DNA from: Myxococcota bacterium
GTDB lineage: Bacteria; Myxococcota_A; UBA796; UBA2385
DNA length: 64,000 nt
Assembly: GCA_044344255.1 (NCBI GenBank)
Contig: JBIJDH010000001.1
Span: 288,001 to 352,000, forward strand
Direction: 5' to 3'
Shown here: piece by piece, positions 7,402-14,586 of the stretch
Layout of the letters: each line of letters starts with the position of its first letter
How positions within the stretch are numbered: position 1 is the first letter of the stretch
The notes under the pieces: model-generated
Databases searched by the model: none
What the model was told of the DNA's origin: nothing
Seen by the model: only the letters and a program-made list of their open reading frames with translations
Position numbers and translations under genes: made by a program

Positions 7402-8508
7402 TCACCCGCCCAGGCCAGGACCCAGCGACCCGCGCCGCCCCCCGGGGGCTCCGCCCTTCACCGCCTCGAGGGCGTGGCAGCGGTAGACGTGGCTGCTCCG
7501 CAGGTGGCGGTGTAGGACCCACTCGAGCCCGTCCACGTCCTGTTCGAGCGAGAAGGCGAGCTCGGGGGCGAAGGCGGGCAGCTCACCGCGGAGGAGGGCG
7601 CGCAGCGCGGCGGCGGGATCGAGATCCTCCGCCGTGGCGCGCACCGCCTCCCCGAGGCGGGCCCCCGGCGGTGTGCAGCGCGGTGACCAGTCGTAGGGGC
7701 TCGACAGGGCGAGGCGCCCCCCGGGCCTCAGCACGGCGTTCATCTGCCGGAGGAAGGTGACCGGCGCGCCGAGGTTGTCGAGCACGTGGTAGGCCATCAC
7801 CCCGTCAAAGGTCTCGGCGGCGAAGGGCGGGTCCAAGAGGTCGGCGGCGAGGATCAAGGCGCGGGCGGGGTCCAGCCCCAGAGGCCGCTCGATCTCCATC
7901 GGCACGAAGTCCCCTCCCCCGTTCCGCCAGCCCGGCACCGTCACCCGGCCCTCCCGGAGCAGGCGGGAGAGGCCGCGGAGCGCCCCGAGGTCGGTGTCGA
8001 CCGCGATGACCCGCGCGCCGAGCGACAGGGCCGAGAGCGTGGCCGGCCCGAAGCCGCAGCCGGCGTCGAGCAGGAGGGGGTCCTGCGCGCGGTCGATCCA
8101 GGCGGCCCGGCGCGCGGCATAGTGCCGCTCGGCGGGGCAGGCGGGGCCCTCCGAGAGGCTGCGGCCATAGATGGCGAGCATCTGCCGGTGCCAGTTCGGG
8201 TCCTCCTCCTCGGTCCAGGCGCCGCGCAGCCAGTGCTCGAGGGCGGGGTGGAGGTCAGCCCGCCACAGGAGGGGGCGCTCCTGCTGGCGGAGATAGCTGG
8301 CGGTGTCCTTCAAGATCACGGCCACCCCGTCGACCACCGGGTAGCGGGCGCCGCAGGCGGGGCAGCGGAGCAGGGCCTCGGTGATGACGCCGCCCTGCTC
8401 GGCGAAGACGGCGTCGAGCCCGAGGGGGGCGCTGTGGTAGACGCCGCTCCGGGGGCCGCGGCAGGCGGGGCAGCAGAGGAGGGACTGAGAGAGGGCGGCC
8501 GAGAGCAT
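7402..8508 (-). CDS. Class I SAM methyltransferase with N-terminal Trm112-like Zn ribbon
   Basis: CPAC...CPACGARYPVVDGV; LLDAGCGFG; VLRPGGRL; start at ATG 8508 is my choice (alternative 8544). Confidence 0.8.
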   Translation of the reverse strand: MLSAALSQSLLCCPACRGPRSGVYHSAPLGLDAVFAEQGGVITEALLRCPACGARYPVVDGVAVILKDTASYLRQQERPLLWRADLHPALEHWLRGAWTEEEDPNWHRQMLAIYGRSLSEGPACPAERHYAARRAAWIDRAQDPLLLDAGCGFGPATLSALSLGARVIAVDTDLGALRGLSRLLREGRVTVPGWRNGGGDFVPMEIERPLGLDPARALILAADLLDPPFAAETFDGVMAYHVLDNLGAPVTFLRQMNAVLRPGGRLALSSPYDWSPRCTPPGARLGEAVRATAEDLDPAAALRALLRGELPAFAPELAFSLEQDVDGLEWVLHRHLRSSHVYRCHALEAVKGGAPGGRRGSLGPGLGG

Positions 8509-8526
8509 GGGGGGAGTGTAGCGGGT
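8494..8526 (+). repeat. 33-bp direct repeat, copy 1 (copy 2 at 9203-9235)
   Basis: ggcggccgagagcatg[gg/ac]gggagtgtagcgggt, 31/33 identical; covers the methyltransferase start codon. Confidence 0.85.
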
Positions 8527-8557
8527 CGGCGTGGAGGTCGGCATCGACCTACGGGGC

Positions 8558-8652: not shown

Positions 8653-8701
8653 CCTCCCCCATCCTATGGGGGAGGTGCCGCCGCATCGGCGGCGGAGGGG
8701 G
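8653..8701. repeat. Palindromic REP-like element; 8668-8701 is an inverted repeat of 14293-14326
   Basis: Hairpin cctccccc-atcctat-gggggagg; 31/34 match to the reverse complement of 14293-14326. Confidence 0.75.
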
Positions 8702-8773: not shown

Positions 8774-8923
8774 TCAGCCTCGAGCGGCTTGGGCGTGGTT
8801 GCGGGCGGCGAGGCGCCGAAGGTACTCGACGCCCTCGCTCCAATGGTCCGCACGGAGCCGTGTCGTGACCGTCGTCTTTCCCGCGCCGTTCGGCCCTGCG
8901 ATGACGAGCAGGGCCGGGTTCAC
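8774..8923 (-). pseudogene. Truncated zeta-toxin-like P-loop ATPase/kinase (49 codons)
   Basis: Hand translation VNPALLVIAGPNGAGKTTVTTRLRADHWSEGVEYL.. has Walker A, then stops; GTGA overlap with the upstream gene; not in the ORF track. Confidence 0.75.
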
Positions 8924-9120
8924 GAGACCGGGCTCGCCAGCCACTCGGCGGCGAAGCGCGCCCGTGCTTCCACCTGGAGCCGCTCGATCCGGACCCGCAT
9001 CTCCCGAAGGCTCTCTTCGCGCGCATCGCGGAGCCCCGCGAAGGCGTCGTGCATCAAGCGAGCCAGATCGTCGTCAGACGGCTCGTAGTCGGGGTCTGCG
9101 AGGTTGGTGCGGGCGGACAT
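8920..9120 (-). CDS. 66-aa helical protein, putative antitoxin partner
   Basis: MSARTNLADPDYEPSDDDLARLMHDAF...; translationally coupled to the P-loop ORF. Confidence 0.65.
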   Translation of the reverse strand: MSARTNLADPDYEPSDDDLARLMHDAFAGLRDAREESLREMRVRIERLQVEARARFAAEWLASPVS

Positions 9121-9202
9121 CGCTCGGCCATCGCGCAAGGAGCCTTCCATCGCCACGAGGGCGGGGTGGAGAGGAGGGACTGCGGGGAACGGACCGGGGG
9201 AA

Positions 9203-9235
9203 GGCGGCCGAGAGCATGACGGGAGTGTAGCGGGT
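9203..9235 (+). repeat. 33-bp direct repeat, copy 2
   Basis: Matches 8494-8526; gaggagggactg also recurs just upstream of both copies. Confidence 0.85.
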
Positions 9236-9280
9236 GGGGATTGTCGCAGGTCGGCGGGGGCCGGCGGAGGGGACCTGCGG

Positions 9281-12200
9281 TCAGGCGTCTTCCAATCCAT
9301 GCAGGAGGGTGAGCGCCCAGGCGGTGTCGATGAACCGGGTGGAAGTCTCCCCAGCACCTTCCAGGTAACGGACCCGGTTCACCCGAGGCTCGTCAAGAAT
9401 GCCGGGCCGCGTGGCCAAGTCGTCTTTCGCGACAAGTACCCAAGCGAGGTCCACGAGCGAGATGGTGCGTTCCTTGAATCCTCCAGCTCCGCCGTCGATG
9501 CGCAGCCCACCTCGTGGTGCCCGGCCAATGACCCGACACCGTCGGCCACGAGACTCAATGATGCGGCCAGCCCCCTCGGCGAGCACACGAGCGACCGCAC
9601 TGTCAGCCCGCGCGAGATCCTCCTTCCGGAGCGTGCGCGAGACCCCGCGTGCGGAGGAGAGCGACCGCCAGCTCTCCAGGTTGAGCGCGGGGAAAGCCCA
9701 GCGCCCTTCGGCAAGGAGCCAACGCCCCACCCCGGCGTATCGCCAGCTCCCAACACTCTCCGGTGCCGGGGAGGCGACCGCGGTGAAGACGAAGGCGGTC
9801 TCGGCCGGGTGGCGCACTTCCCCGATCGGCAGGGCCCGATCGGGAGCGGCGAGCTGGCCGGGCTCGGAGAGGAGGATGAAGAGGTGGCCGTCTACCCGGG
9901 AGGCACCAGGGCGGGGGGTGGAGGACAGGCCGAAGGCCTCGACCAGCGCCGCCTCATCCATGACCTTGCCCTCTTCGGGCGCGAGAGACTCGGGAGTGAA
10001 GACCTGGACGAGGCGGGCCAGCGGCTCCGCACCCTCCGCCGGGCGGTCGGCCACCGCCGGATTGTCCGACCGCAGCACCCAGCCTCCATCCACGTTCACG
10101 AGACGCTTGAGATAGTATTCATGGGCCTCGTCGCCGGCCTCGCCGACCGCCACCAGGGCTACCTGCCCCTCCAGCGCCGAGAGACCCTGGCCACGGGCCC
10201 AACGGAGCAGCACCCAGTCGCCATCCCGAATGGGGCGCTTGCCGCCGTCCATCGAGTCGCCGAAGGCACGCACCGCTAAGAGCTCGGGGTCGGGCCGGAC
10301 GCCCGGCAGGCTCACCCACTCGGCCTCGAGCGCGGCCTGCCAGTCGTTCTGTCGCCCCGCCGCCGCCCGTAGGGAGGGCCAGGCCACCACGCGCCCGCGG
10401 GCGGGCAGCTCGACCACCTGGCCCTCGACCGGCTCCATCCACCAGCCGTCGGGAGAGGGGCGGAAACGAACCCGAAAGCCCGTGCCCGAGTTGCCGGCCA
10501 CATCGCCGAACCAGCTCCGAAGCAGGCCGGGGAGGAGGTTCTGGTCGCGCCCGGGGCGGCGGGCCACGTTCACTGCGATCTTGACGAAATTGAGGTGCCA
10601 GACCTCGCCATCGGGGAGCCGTACGTCGGTCCAGCCCACCGGCAGGGCCTCCCGCGCCTGCCCGTCGGGGAGCTTCAGCATGGGCCCCTGGTAGTTATGA
10701 ATGACCTTGACCTCGACGGCCCCTGAGCCGGGATCGACCACGAGGCGGCGTCGGAGCTGGGCGAGGCGCAGATCGACCAGCTCCCGCACCATTTCGGTGA
10801 AGGCCAACCCGAACGAAGTGCCCTCCACGTCCGCCGGCAGGCGAACCTTCGCCGCCACTTGCCCGGCCTCCACCCGGAGGCCGCTGTTCCACTCCGAGCG
10901 GGGTCGCTGCTCCCAGGCCGCCCGCCACGCTTCGGGGTGGTCGAGGGCCGCCCGGTCGGCCTCCGCCAACAGTCCGTGCAGGCGGGCGTCCAAACGGAGG
11001 CGCTGCCGCAGCCCTTCGGCCAGCGCCGAGAGCGACAGGCCGGAGAGCAGGTGCCCGCCATCGAGGAGCAATTCGAGCACGAGGGGCCGATAGGGACCGC
11101 GGAGGGGGGCGGCCTCGAGATCGGTGAGCCAAGGGCCAACAGCGGTGAGCACAGCCCTCTCGGAGTCGGTCAGGTCGCCCATCCGGTCTACGAAGTGGAA
11201 CCAGCCCCCATGCCCGCGGCGCACCGTGGCGGGGTTGAGCCCCCGCCGGAGGAGCTCTCCCGCGGTGGGTCGCTCGCCGCGGGCCGCCCGCAGCTCCCGA
11301 TAGACCCGCTCCACCTCGTCGGAGCCCACGCGGGGCAGGAAGTGACGGAGGAGGTCTATGGCCTCCGTCTCGATGTGCAGGGAGCAGCCAGGAGGGAGGG
11401 TGGCGGCCCCATCGTCGTACAGGAAGGCATGGAGGGGTGTAGACGGGCCCCCCGCCCCCTCCCCCGCTCCACCGCCGAGGCCGAGCAGCGTGCGCAGGCG
11501 GTTGAGGAAGACATGGTGGTTGCCCACGAAGTCGATGACCGTGAGGATGGACTTGCCGGCGAGGGTGCGAAGGCCGCGGCCGAGCTGCTGGAGGAAGACC
11601 ACCGGTGACTCGGTGGGCCGGAGCAGCACCACGCGGTCAATGCTGGGGCAGTCGATGCCTTCATTGAACAGGTCGACCGCACAAAGGGCGTCGAGCCGCC
11701 CCGCCGCGAGCGCCTCCAGGCCGGCCCCGCGGTCATGGGAGCCGGCGCCGCTGTGTACCGCCTCGGCGCGCACGCCCCGGGCCTTTAACCAGTCGCGCGT
11801 GAAGTCCGCGTGGGCGATCGAGACGCAGAAGACGAGGCTTCGCTGGCCGGCCTGGGCAGGGTCGGTCCAGGCGCGCCAGAGGGTCTCCATTCGGGCCTGG
11901 GTCTCCACCCGCCGACTGAGCTCGACCACGTCGAAGCGGCCGTTCTTCCACGGGAGGTTGGCGTAGTCTACCGTGTCTTTCAGGCCGAAGTACCGAAAGG
12001 GCACAAGCAGCCCGCGGGCGATGCCCAGGCCGAGGTCACAACGATAGACGAGGTTATCGTCGAAGAGGGCCGCCACATCCCCATCATCGGCGCGCTCCGG
12101 CGTGGCGGTGAGGCCGAGGAGGAAACGCGGCCGCAAGTGGTCGAGGATACGCCGATAGGAACGGGCGGCGGCGTGGTGTACTTCGTCGACCACCACGCAG

Positions 12201-13525
12201 TCGAAGTCGTCGGGCCGGAAGCCCTGGAGGTGTTCGGGGCGGGACAGGGTCTGCACCGACGCGAAGAGCAGACGCCAGTCCCCCGTCGGTCGTTTCCCGT
12301 CACCGAGCCAGGCCACCCCCGCATCAAAGCCGCAGGCCCGAAAGGTGCCCGCAGCCTGCTCCAGAAGCTCTCGCAGGTGAGCGAGCACGAGCACCCGCAG
12401 CGGGCGGCCGAGCTCCTTCTCGATGGCCTGGAGGTCGAAGGCGGCGAGCCAGGTCTTTCCGAGCCCCGTCGCCAGAACCACGAGTGCATGGCCCACCCCG
12501 GCGGCACGGCTCCGCGCCAGGGCGGCGAGGGCCTCCACCTGCACCGCGTTCGGGGTGACCGGCGCGCGGGTGAGCGGCAGCGGTTCCTCGTCCAGGTCGG
12601 CCCCCGGCGCCATTCCGTCCGGGCCCCTCCCGAGCGTGGGTCGGGGCCGGAGCGCATAGGCGGCGATCCAGGCCTCGTCGATGGGGTGGGCCTGCGCCCA
12701 GAGCGCTTCGAACGAGGCCCCGATACGGGCCCAGGCCTGTGGGTCACGCGCGCGGTCTACGCGCAGGTTCCACTCGACACCGTCAAGCAGGGCCGAACGC
12801 GACAGGTTGCTACTGCCCACGTAGGCCACCCCGAAGCCGGGGCCCTCGACCACCCAGGCCTTCGGGTGAAAGGCACGACGGATCTTCGCCGCCTCGACCA
12901 CCCGGGTCTCCAGCACACCGGGCACCCGCTCCCCACCGGCTTCGTCCTCCTCCTCGTCGGCCCCCGCCGCGAGAGCTCGGGACTGGTTGAGCAGCCCCTG
13001 GAGGGCGAATGGCGAGGTGATGTTGAGGTAGTCCCCCGTGAGCAGGCGCACCTGCCCGCCCCGCCGGAACAGGCCACGGAAGGGCCCGAGCACGAGGTCG
13101 AGGCCACTGATCTGGGTGAAGGCGGCGAGCACGTCTACCCGCGTGGCCTGCACCAAGGCCGGGAGCAGAGCGGGGAAAAGCGCATTCGGCGGTTGACCGT
13201 CGGTGAGCGGCTCCGGCAGGGCGTTCCAGCGCGGGATGACGTGCACACAGAGGCGCAGGGGATCGGGACTTGCATGTGGATCGAGTTCGAGGGCCACCGT
13301 GCAGCCTTCGGCGCCGAGATCCTCCCGGAACCGCCGCCGAAGCGCCGCAGCCAGCTCCCCCATCGCCTCCTCCTCCTCTCCGGTCGCGTCCTCCAGGAGC
13401 CTGAAGGCTCGCCGCGGAAGGATGAGGCAATGCCCCGCAGCGACCGGCATGTGCGCAGGGATGGCGAAGGCGAGATCGTTCGAGAGCAGCGGCTGGGCGG
13501 CGAAGGCGGAGGATGAAAGGGGCAA
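9281..13525 (-). CDS. HIT-like + PLD nuclease + SF2 (DExH) helicase + S24 peptidase fusion, SauUSI-like core
   Basis: PVAAGHCLILPRR/VHVIPRW (HIT); FHPKAW..GSSNLS..EWN (PLD); ATGLGKT, DEVHH, TATP, QQLGRGLR (helicase); AAAG, GDSM, YLKRL (S24); TTG start at 13525 inferred. Confidence 0.85.
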   Translation of the reverse strand: MPLSSSAFAAQPLLSNDLAFAIPAHMPVAAGHCLILPRRAFRLLEDATGEEEEAMGELAAALRRRFREDLGAEGCTVALELDPHASPDPLRLCVHVIPRWNALPEPLTDGQPPNALFPALLPALVQATRVDVLAAFTQISGLDLVLGPFRGLFRRGGQVRLLTGDYLNITSPFALQGLLNQSRALAAGADEEEDEAGGERVPGVLETRVVEAAKIRRAFHPKAWVVEGPGFGVAYVGSSNLSRSALLDGVEWNLRVDRARDPQAWARIGASFEALWAQAHPIDEAWIAAYALRPRPTLGRGPDGMAPGADLDEEPLPLTRAPVTPNAVQVEALAALARSRAAGVGHALVVLATGLGKTWLAAFDLQAIEKELGRPLRVLVLAHLRELLEQAAGTFRACGFDAGVAWLGDGKRPTGDWRLLFASVQTLSRPEHLQGFRPDDFDCVVVDEVHHAAARSYRRILDHLRPRFLLGLTATPERADDGDVAALFDDNLVYRCDLGLGIARGLLVPFRYFGLKDTVDYANLPWKNGRFDVVELSRRVETQARMETLWRAWTDPAQAGQRSLVFCVSIAHADFTRDWLKARGVRAEAVHSGAGSHDRGAGLEALAAGRLDALCAVDLFNEGIDCPSIDRVVLLRPTESPVVFLQQLGRGLRTLAGKSILTVIDFVGNHHVFLNRLRTLLGLGGGAGEGAGGPSTPLHAFLYDDGAATLPPGCSLHIETEAIDLLRHFLPRVGSDEVERVYRELRAARGERPTAGELLRRGLNPATVRRGHGGWFHFVDRMGDLTDSERAVLTAVGPWLTDLEAAPLRGPYRPLVLELLLDGGHLLSGLSLSALAEGLRQRLRLDARLHGLLAEADRAALDHPEAWRAAWEQRPRSEWNSGLRVEAGQVAAKVRLPADVEGTSFGLAFTEMVRELVDLRLAQLRRRLVVDPGSGAVEVKVIHNYQGPMLKLPDGQAREALPVGWTDVRLPDGEVWHLNFVKIAVNVARRPGRDQNLLPGLLRSWFGDVAGNSGTGFRVRFRPSPDGWWMEPVEGQVVELPARGRVVAWPSLRAAAGRQNDWQAALEAEWVSLPGVRPDPELLAVRAFGDSMDGGKRPIRDGDWVLLRWARGQGLSALEGQVALVAVGEAGDEAHEYYLKRLVNVDGGWVLRSDNPAVADRPAEGAEPLARLVQVFTPESLAPEEGKVMDEAALVEAFGLSSTPRPGASRVDGHLFILLSEPGQLAAPDRALPIGEVRHPAETAFVFTAVASPAPESVGSWRYAGVGRWLLAEGRWAFPALNLESWRSLSSARGVSRTLRKEDLARADSAVARVLAEGAGRIIESRGRRCRVIGRAPRGGLRIDGGAGGFKERTISLVDLAWVLVAKDDLATRPGILDEPRVNRVRYLEGAGETSTRFIDTAWALTLLHGLEDA

Positions 13526-13598
13526 TGGGGCCTCAGTCGGAGAGAGGGAGAATAGACTGGGCGGCCCGAGGGCCCCGCGAAGCCGGGCATCCGCCCGA

Positions 13599-13805
13599 CT
13601 ACGCAGGCCCTTCAGCGACACTTGGCTCCGCCTGGGAGTGCAGGCGCACAAAGAGGCCGGCACACCAATTCCCCTGCTCATCCTCCAGCACACGGCGGGC
13701 GGTCAAGAACGCGCGAGGGCCCACCACCGTGCCGCTCCCGAGGATCTTGCAGGTGCCATCGTCCAGCACCCGCCCGACCATCACCGCGTCTCTGTGCGGC
13801 GCCAT
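13599..13805 (-). pseudogene. Truncated trypsin-like serine protease N-terminus
   Basis: GSGTVVGPRAFLTARRVL resembles GSG..LTAxHV with His replaced by Arg (CGT); stops at 68 aa; 3 nt downstream of Trypco2. Confidence 0.7.
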
Positions 13806-13808
13806 GCT

Positions 13809-14135
13809 TTACCGGCTCACCTTGAAGGTCTTCGGATCGATCGGCGCCTTCGGGTCGTGGCGGACCGGCTTCAGCTTGAGCTTGACCTTCTGGGTGGACA
13901 CATCCGAGTAGGTTCCCTTGGCGCCGATCTCGAAGACGTGCAGCGACAGCTTGCCACCGAGCTCGCCAGAACGTTGAACGGCGACCTGCAGCTCGACTTC
14001 GACTTCTTCGACGGTGAAGGCGGTGTCGTGGTTGCTGAGTGCGAGCTTCACGCTCATCGCGCCGAGCTCGTCGCGGAGGCGATCGATCACTTCGTCAAAC
14101 GAGACGAGCTTGTCGGGCACTTCCTGCGTGGACAT
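13809..14135 (-). CDS. Trypsin co-occurring domain protein (Trypco2-like)
   Basis: VIDRLRDEL...FTVEEVEVELQVAV..GGKLSLHVFEIGAKG..TQKVKLKLKP; trypsin-like gene follows. Confidence 0.8.
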   Translation of the reverse strand: MSTQEVPDKLVSFDEVIDRLRDELGAMSVKLALSNHDTAFTVEEVEVELQVAVQRSGELGGKLSLHVFEIGAKGTYSDVSTQKVKLKLKPVRHDPKAPIDPKTFKVSR

Positions 14136-14230
14136 TCCGGCTTCCTTCGAGGCGGCGCCATCGTACACCAAGGGCGTGTGCGGTGGGTCGGTCGGCGGAA
14201 GGGCTTCGGGGACCGGTGGAGATGGTGCGG

Positions 14231-14384: not shown

Positions 14385-14586
14385 GCCCTTCGGGGCCATC
14401 CGATCGCCCTTTGGGGCCATGCCACTGCCCTTCGGGGCCATGCCACTGCCCTTCGGGGCCATCGCACTGCCCTTCGGGGCCATCGCACTGCCCTTCGGGG
14501 CCATCGCACTGCCCTTCGGGGCCATCGCACTGCCCTTCGGGGCCATCGCACTGCCCTTCGGGGCCATCGCACCGCCCTTCGGGGCC
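14385..14586 (+). repeat. 21-bp tandem repeat, 10 hairpin cores
   Basis: Consensus gcccttcggggccatcgcact; cores start at 14385 and every 21 nt to 14574. Confidence 0.97.

Follow-up and report, generated by a model that had tools for sequence, protein, structure and literature searches.

A SauUSI-like nuclease-helicase of a Myxococcota bacterium carries an internal LexA-type S24 domain that may act as an in-chain DNA damage switch

The window analysed here is a stretch of 64,000 nucleotides from a Myxococcota bacterium (assembly GCA_044344255.1, contig JBIJDH010000001.1, positions 288,001 to 352,000), and positions below are counted from its first letter. An uninterrupted open frame occupies 9281-13693 on the minus strand, and a TTG start at 13525 gives a protein of 1414 amino acids (aa; 9281..13525), the same start having been called in the close relative P0003. 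The start ATG of another relative, P0002, is present at 13590 but lies one base out of frame, so the window copy starts at TTG 13525 or further upstream. For comparison, contigs were taken from four runs, each of a different study and none flagged as a possible source. The pieces of them that cover HIT and S24 do not differ from the window in any letter, no single piece spanning the whole gene. The gene is real and intact. It encodes a nuclease-helicase on the plan of the type IV restriction enzyme SauUSI with a LexA-type module between motor and terminal reader, through which, judging from the sequence, DNA damage may switch the enzyme directly. The features are as follows.

9281..13525, minus strand: whole gene, 1414 aa, HIT-PLD-SF2-coupler-B3-S24-reduced SRA-C-terminal domain (CTD); Pfam and predicted-structure comparison
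13217..13504, minus strand: HIT domain, aa 8-103, triad R91-C93-H95 in place of HxHxH; Pfam PF01230 (E 2e-6) and family census
12641..13213, minus strand: PLD (HKD-type) nuclease, aa 105-295, with H220, K222, G237-S-S-N240 and E251; alignment and match to the SauUSI HxK(x)4E motif
11501..12562, minus strand: SF2 helicase-like ATPase, aa 322-675, with Walker A K357 and DEVH 447-450; Pfam, alignment and 7clg
10742..11383, minus strand: SauUSI-like helical coupler, aa ~715-928; model against 7clg 619-797, Z 7.8, root-mean-square deviation (rmsd) 2.5 over 87 residues
10418..10726, minus strand: predicted B3-like DNA-binding barrel, aa 934-1036; structural matches to B3 domains
9992..10396, minus strand: LexA-type S24 autoprotease domain, aa 1044-1178; residue conservation and profile search
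10360-10355, minus strand: S24 scissile pair A1056-G1057; motif register
10255-10253, minus strand: S24 S1091; motif register
10108-10106, minus strand: S24 K1140; motif register
9650..9988, minus strand: reduced SRA-fold domain, aa 1180-1292; 7clg 803-953, Z 7.4, rmsd 2.9 over 90 aa
9284..9640, minus strand: conserved CTD of 120 aa with a helix, a four-strand sheet and three helices; AlphaFold2 model, predicted local distance difference test score (pLDDT) mostly >90

Pfam matched HIT at residues 13-99, PLDc_2 at 154-276, ResIII (also named ResIII/DEAD) at 324-478, Helicase_C at 558-653 and Peptidase_S24 at 1065-1165, in the order given by an initial annotation made from the sequence alone. 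That annotation had described the PLD and SF2 motifs as intact, and every motif it quoted was found at its position: HPK at 220-222, GSSN at 237-240, E251, GLGKT at 354 and DEVHH at 447, as well as LRLCVHVIPR at 90 in HIT and LRAAAG at 1052, GDSM at 1089 and YLKR at 1138 in S24. The top PADLOC model was mREase_IV (E 1e-90), aligned to residues 123-672 only. The best PDB match was SauUSI (7clg, E 2e-70), with RadD second, and the coupler and SRA folds also matched 7clg first, bearing out the SauUSI scaffold of the initial annotation. The protein thus has the SauUSI-type set of PLD HxK(x)4E and GSSN...E, a DExH ATPase of SF2 followed by a coupler, and a C-terminal SRA fold of middling Z (7.4).

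AlphaFold2 models were made for residues 680-1045 (pLDDT 86) and 1179-1414 (pLDDT 94) from alignments of 102 rows. The Z values of the coupler, B3 and SRA folds are middling, yet each heads a coherent family of matches. Residues 734-928 matched the SauUSI coupler first (Z 7.8), and residues 1183-1291 the SauUSI SRA domain, the top 15 structural matches all being SRA-domain proteins. The barrel at 934-1036, absent from the domain list of the initial annotation, matched the B3 domains of FUS3 (Z 7.5, rmsd 2.6, 87 aa), R.NgoAVII (Z 7.5, rmsd 3.8, 100 aa) and ARF1 (Z 7.1), and that of VAL1 in Foldseek (prob 0.93). Some 230 residues at the C-terminus had been left as unknown; their first half is an SRA fold, and the description still suits the last 120 aa, which have no convincing match (none in Pfam, none in Foldseek at E 0.001 against the PDB and viral libraries, best structural Z 4.1, modelled within 1179-1414). 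The ESM Atlas gave no usable match for 1179-1414 and, for 930-1180, only S24 clusters scoring <0.9. The protein thus reads as a SauUSI scaffold with B3 and S24 placed between its coupler and its reader.

With residues 930-1414 as the query, 262 proteins were found among 7999 scored candidates, the best 120 of which were listed. Nearly all of these have the same Pfam set and a length of ~1400 aa. Most of those named among the matches listed are Myxococcota (Pyxidicoccus, Archangium, Sorangium, Anaeromyxobacter); one is from Planctomycetes, and two are from Pseudomonadota. The main alignment consists of the query and these 120 relatives (121 rows) and, having been chosen on the C-terminal half, favours intact copies. 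PLD residues H220, K222, GSSN and E251 were each conserved in 111/111 rows with residues, Walker A K357 in 112/112, and A1056, G1057, S1091 and K1140 of S24 in all 121 rows, with AAA at P3-P1 of the cleavage site in 115. Among 26 S24 domains taken from genome loci (29-82% identity to the query), Ser and Lys were present in every one and an A/C-G site in 24; their profile found the structures of LexA, CI and UmuD, the alignment beginning at Escherichia coli LexA residue 81. The LexA-type S24 with Ala-Gly, Ser and Lys reported by the initial annotation is therefore intact, and its dyad is upheld in the homologues. The domain agrees with a LexA-type autoprotease in every sequence feature compared, and RecA-stimulated self-cleavage of the window copy is predicted. 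Run against 1.84 billion representatives, a profile of the reduced SRA and CTD found 255 clusters at E 0.001, and the long members among the 147 newly listed clusters all belong to the family of the window gene.

The C-terminal half was matched in 42 of 401 phylum genomes and in 5 of 40 relatives, and S24 was present in 25 of the 42 family loci examined. Besides the full form, members were found with B3-S24 at the end or followed by a short tail, with B3-S24 and a canonical DUF3427, with B3-DUF3427 lacking S24, with B3 at the end, and with a reduced SRA-CTD lacking HIT and S24. S24 is an optional cassette placed between DNA-binding domains. A quick tree of 46 PLD-SF2 cores, with truncated and split loci left out, needs four gains or losses of S24, at least three of them forced by well-supported branches. 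A quick tree built from 63 S24 domains places 40 SauUSI-type domains on one side of a branch whose Shimodaira-Hasegawa-like approximate likelihood ratio test value (SH-aLRT) of 92 is below the mark of 95; on the other side are five LexA and 18 S24 tails that lie at the C-terminus of other long proteins. One split member (L046, G011:C191) has the reduced SRA-CTD part twice on its contig and A-E instead of A-G at the site.

A search seeded with the canonical-reader variant gave 174 matches, and the best 120 were listed. S24 and DUF3427 occur together in 81 of these 120, forming a sister subfamily with Ser in 81/81, Lys in 78/81 and the equivalents of SauUSI D858 and W868 in 76/81 and 81/81, respectively. 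Its predicted cleavage site is A-C-G (Cys-Gly) in all 81.

The 5-methylcytosine (5mC) pocket of SauUSI is given in the available text of PMC7913695 as M829, Y831, F841, I842, D858 and W868. It was mapped to the window protein through a canonical DUF3427 relative and by a profile alignment in hhalign with canonical DUF3427 tails (E 3e-5, probability 47%, i.e. low). In this low-probability mapping the D858 position is Gly in 91/121 rows and Asp in 18/121, W868 is absent, and so is the loop before it; Pfam found no DUF3427 in the window protein. The residues taken to define a pocket for 5mC or 5-hydroxymethylcytosine (M829, Y831, D858, W868) are thus lacking in the window copy by this mapping, and the sister subfamily has an intact 5mC reader. 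As the window copy is without this defining SauUSI feature, we do not count it among the 5mC enzymes of the SauUSI family. The reduced SRA has invariant residues of its own, R1210 and E1242 (121/121 each). It and the 120-aa domain are under selection and, with no 5mC pocket, may read a different DNA mark.

How such an enzyme might work is suggested by SauUSI, which in the available text of PMC7913695 is a PLD-joined dimer whose ATPase is activated through the coupler when SRA binds its target. ATP- and modification-dependent DNA cleavage by the window enzyme is predicted: a stand-alone restriction-type nuclease, in which the C-terminal reader would engage the target and start the SF2 motor before the PLD dimer cuts. 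Once RecA filaments form on single-stranded DNA (ssDNA), S24 would cut itself at A1056/G1057 and separate HIT-PLD-motor-coupler-B3 from S24-SRA-CTD. As S24 lies between the DNA-binding domains, the cut would sever the terminal reader from the motor and leave a nuclease-motor ending ...LRAAA, a LexA-like ClpXP signal; it would also take the S24 dimer contact away from B3. Since target binding by SRA turns on the SauUSI ATPase, removal of the reader should silence the enzyme. Both consequences have LexA precedents in the accessible parts of two papers: cleavage removes the dimer domain of LexA from its DNA-binding domain (10.1101/2023.10.30.564768), and LexA-like proteins hide ClpXP degrons beside the cut (PMC5742171). 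In the sister subfamily a canonical 5mC reader would be removed, and in the S24-terminal variants the sole common result would be loss of S24 next to B3, as in LexA. The net outcome would be a fast shut-off at the protein level when DNA is damaged, akin in purpose to EcoKI restriction alleviation. We favour this RecA-triggered shut-off of a SauUSI-plan nuclease, tentatively and at slightly less than an even chance; the domain anatomy favours an off switch over an opening gate. A defence role fits the patchy presence of the gene, the lack of a conserved neighbour and a second type IV enzyme nearby at 4/33 loci.

Several points weigh against the shut-off. Among 40 representatives that carry B3 and the reduced SRA or CTD on one chain, 25 have S24 and 15 lack it (four of the 15 being short pieces), so the cassette is dispensable. 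The product of the sister subfamily would end in -VAC rather than -AA, hence a degron is not the universal purpose. An off switch would be costly, since phage infection can itself raise ssDNA. At L043, L051, L060 and L062 the family member has a canonical type IV enzyme no more than two genes away, a count with no background rate, and the reader of the window copy has lost the 5mC pocket. EcoKI alleviation depends on ClpXP and does not require LexA cleavage in the accessible part of PMC11109961, so that the likeness to EcoKI is one of purpose only. Finally, IrvR, with an intact S24, cleaves without RecA (PMC7101444, available text).

The IrvR precedent also speaks for a reading in which S24 cuts independently of RecA (in constitutive maturation or turnover, or on the enzyme's own motor state) or mainly dimerises two B3/reader arms. 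LexA touches three units of RecA within the RecA groove according to the available text of 10.1101/2023.10.30.564768, and the bulky domains flanking S24 here may not fit that groove; these S24 domains also form their own branch apart from the host LexA. A purely structural role, however, does not account for two subfamilies in which Ser, Lys and the scissile pair are invariant. Independence from RecA sits poorly with the positions of the LexA F111/L113 pocket, which by motif register are kept as F in 120/121 rows and V in 111/121. A complex prediction with three host RecA, two ATP and S24 scored 0.11 against a mark of 0.32, which is evidence neither way. We consider this reading unlikely.

The Cys-Gly site of the sister subfamily raises the opposite direction of switching, which is the view taken by the initial annotation. 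UmuD uses Cys-Gly, and its cleavage activates. In an analogous scheme, S24 and the terminal domains would hold the enzyme shut or tied to modified DNA, and a RecA-triggered cut would free a B3-guided nuclease-motor to degrade the DNA of infected or damaged cells, a form of abortive infection. The N-terminal fragment would indeed retain PLD, motor and B3. As the B3 barrels of NgoAVII-type enzymes read unmodified sequences, and no methyltransferase was seen among the listed neighbour matches, cutting guided by B3 would hit the host. Five natural members (L065, L071, L072, L074 and L075) nevertheless end after B3, with neither S24 nor SRA; they resemble the cleavage product, are kept intact and have no methyltransferase nearby, which suggests that such a fragment is tolerated. 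In the window subfamily the -AAA end would moreover invite ClpXP. An on switch is to us the most serious rival to the shut-off, though an unlikely one.

The initial annotation had also proposed a degenerate HIT sensor. Its single-His motif is confirmed in the window copy, where R91-C93-H95 lacks the HxHxH of an active HIT hydrolase and the flanking conserved Asp, Asn and AGQTV residues, motifs for nucleotide contact, are missing too. The idea of a sensor did not hold up. Over the 121 rows the triad is HHH in 105, R-C-H in 3, other in 2 and a gap in 11, i.e. HHH in 105/110 rows with residues; R-C-H is confined to P0001-P0003, and HIT is weak or absent in members of other branches. On these grounds a purposely evolved, degenerate nucleotide sensor was rejected, and the family HIT reads as an ordinary hydrolase that decays now and then. 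An assembly error was ruled out as the cause of the change, since the contigs of the four other runs agree letter for letter in the pieces that cover HIT. A fused HIT is a plausible parallel to the MutT/Nudix gene linked to SauUSI in at least 60 cases (PMC3141236, accessible part). In two PLD-SF2-S24-DUF3427 relatives, P0361 and P0362, an S-adenosylmethionine (SAM)-dependent methyltransferase domain replaces the N-terminal HIT.

A HIT that is dead in the window lineage, flanking genes that are relics (truncated trypsin-like and P-loop open reading frames, ORFs) and RadD as the second PDB match would suit a family that works as proposed with a decaying window copy, or an SOS-controlled helicase-nuclease for repair or processing rather than defence. 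The nuclease, motor and protease residues are all intact, however, the reading frame is open and shows no change wherever pieces from four other runs cover it, and the patchy distribution and PADLOC mREase_IV match suit defence, not core repair. Decay or a repair function thus seems very improbable to us.

Compared with SauUSI of Staphylococcus aureus (type IV, ATP-dependent; PDB 7CLG; PADLOC mREase_IV), the window gene has PLD HxK(x)4E, the SF2 DExH ATPase, the coupler and, at the C-terminus, the SRA fold in an identical order, stands as a single gene, and shares a tie to a nucleotide hydrolase (a linked Nudix gene there, a fused HIT here). It differs in that fusion, in the B3 and S24 inserted between coupler and SRA, in a shortened SRA without the M829/Y831/D858/W868 pocket, and in the extra 120-aa domain. 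With LexA, lambda CI and UmuD (MEROPS S24, PF00717) it shares the Ser-Lys dyad, Ala-Gly in register, Ala-Ala before the cut and a DNA-binding domain directly before the site; unlike theirs, the window S24 is internal to a 150-kDa nuclease with B3 in place of the helix-turn-helix and further domains behind, lies on a separate branch from the host LexA, and had no operator found in the 21 upstream stretches searched. NgoAVII/BfiI-type enzymes likewise combine a PLD nuclease with a B3 barrel, and NgoAVII an SF2 ATPase too, whereas the window enzyme is one chain with S24 and SRA folds and no cognate methyltransferase among the listed neighbour matches. EcoKI alleviation resembles the proposed purpose, in which proteolysis stops a translocating nuclease upon damage to the host DNA; there HsdR is degraded while translocating without LexA cleavage, whereas the trigger of the window enzyme would be in-chain.

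Our literature search, with supplements and most subscription papers outside it, found no paper describing this architecture or S24 fusions to restriction enzymes. Apparent S24 matches in Millman 2022 were table numbers; LexA, S24 and peptidase were all absent from the main text of the ARMADA preprint, and the architecture is covered neither by PMC12458937, in a term search, nor by the accessible part of PMC12839542. The nearest idea was a caspase-fused SRA-HNH enzyme (PMC6765204, available text). Automatic database names already carry the domain string. New here are the internal position of S24, the two readers it separates, the intact-HIT background of the family and the Cys-Gly sister group. 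An occasional C-terminal S24-like domain is reportedly mentioned in a CDD entry on fusions of PLD and helicase.

We also propose, with belief and doubt in equal parts, that RecA acts on the restriction nuclease itself as a direct substrate: through the SOS signal the chain would be cut between motor and reader, which would shut the enzyme off or change its target with no transcription step, S24 would serve defence translocases as a portable switch for damage, in this case as a distinct in-chain lineage, and the reduced SRA and CTD would read a non-5mC mark. The proposal addresses the question of how modification-dependent nucleases spare their own damaged chromosome, alleviation being framed as known for type I enzymes in the available text of PMC11109961. 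With a LexA module inside the chain this question can be tested, and natural variants that have or lack S24, with canonical or reduced readers, are built-in controls.

A PADLOC scan of 111 near neighbours at 33 loci found no conserved partner; no methyltransferase was present among the listed matches (best five families each) or by Pfam beside the window gene. At L043, L051 and L062 the neighbouring canonical SauUSI-like DUF3427 enzyme lies tail to tail with the family member, and the ends overlap at L043 and L051. Six further loci have a strong defence-model match (SoFic twice, PDC-M41B, PDC-M51A, PDC-S60 and PDC-S11), again with no background rate. A TCG-N7-CGA dyad occurs in 10 of 21 upstream stretches versus 1.6 in shuffles, and was rejected as an upstream operator, as most occurrences lie in coding sequence, among the gene's first codons.

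In the window, the gene is flanked on one side by a Trypco2 gene and a truncated trypsin-like ORF and on the other by a truncated P-loop ORF. The Trypco2 gene (13809-14168) and then a 68-aa ORF (13602-13805, both minus strand) lie directly upstream; the latter resembles the start of a trypsin-like protease, stops early and has no Pfam match, and the two look like a relic conflict module. On the other side, a 66-aa ORF (8923-9120) is coupled to the 49-aa truncated P-loop ORF (8777-8923, both minus strand), with weak zeta-toxin/AAA matches, a possible toxin-antitoxin relic. This pair is flanked by a 67-nucleotide direct repeat (8463-8529 and 9172-9238, 79%), the core of which occurs only twice in the genome. 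Inverted arms of 34 nucleotides at 8668 and 14293 were rejected as element ends, because 23 genome copies at <=4 mismatches mark a dispersed repeat. A tandem array at 14385-14586 contains 9.6 copies of a 21-nucleotide unit (95% matches), the unit having 28 copies on several contigs.

The host genome encodes LexA, two RecA and two ClpX, which speaks for the proposed shut-off. It also has a second S24 fusion, a DEAD/MZB helicase of 1989 aa (G000:C56:13748-19717; L082:8752-14718, minus strand) with an MrfA Zn-binding domain and an intact C-terminal S24 (RIAAG, GDSM, KRL), the gene for which adjoins IetA-like, MkoA-like and Orf5/HEC-06-like genes. Relatives of its S24 tail (L101-L118) were found in 18 of 151 phylum genomes, in open frames of 308 to 2279 aa.

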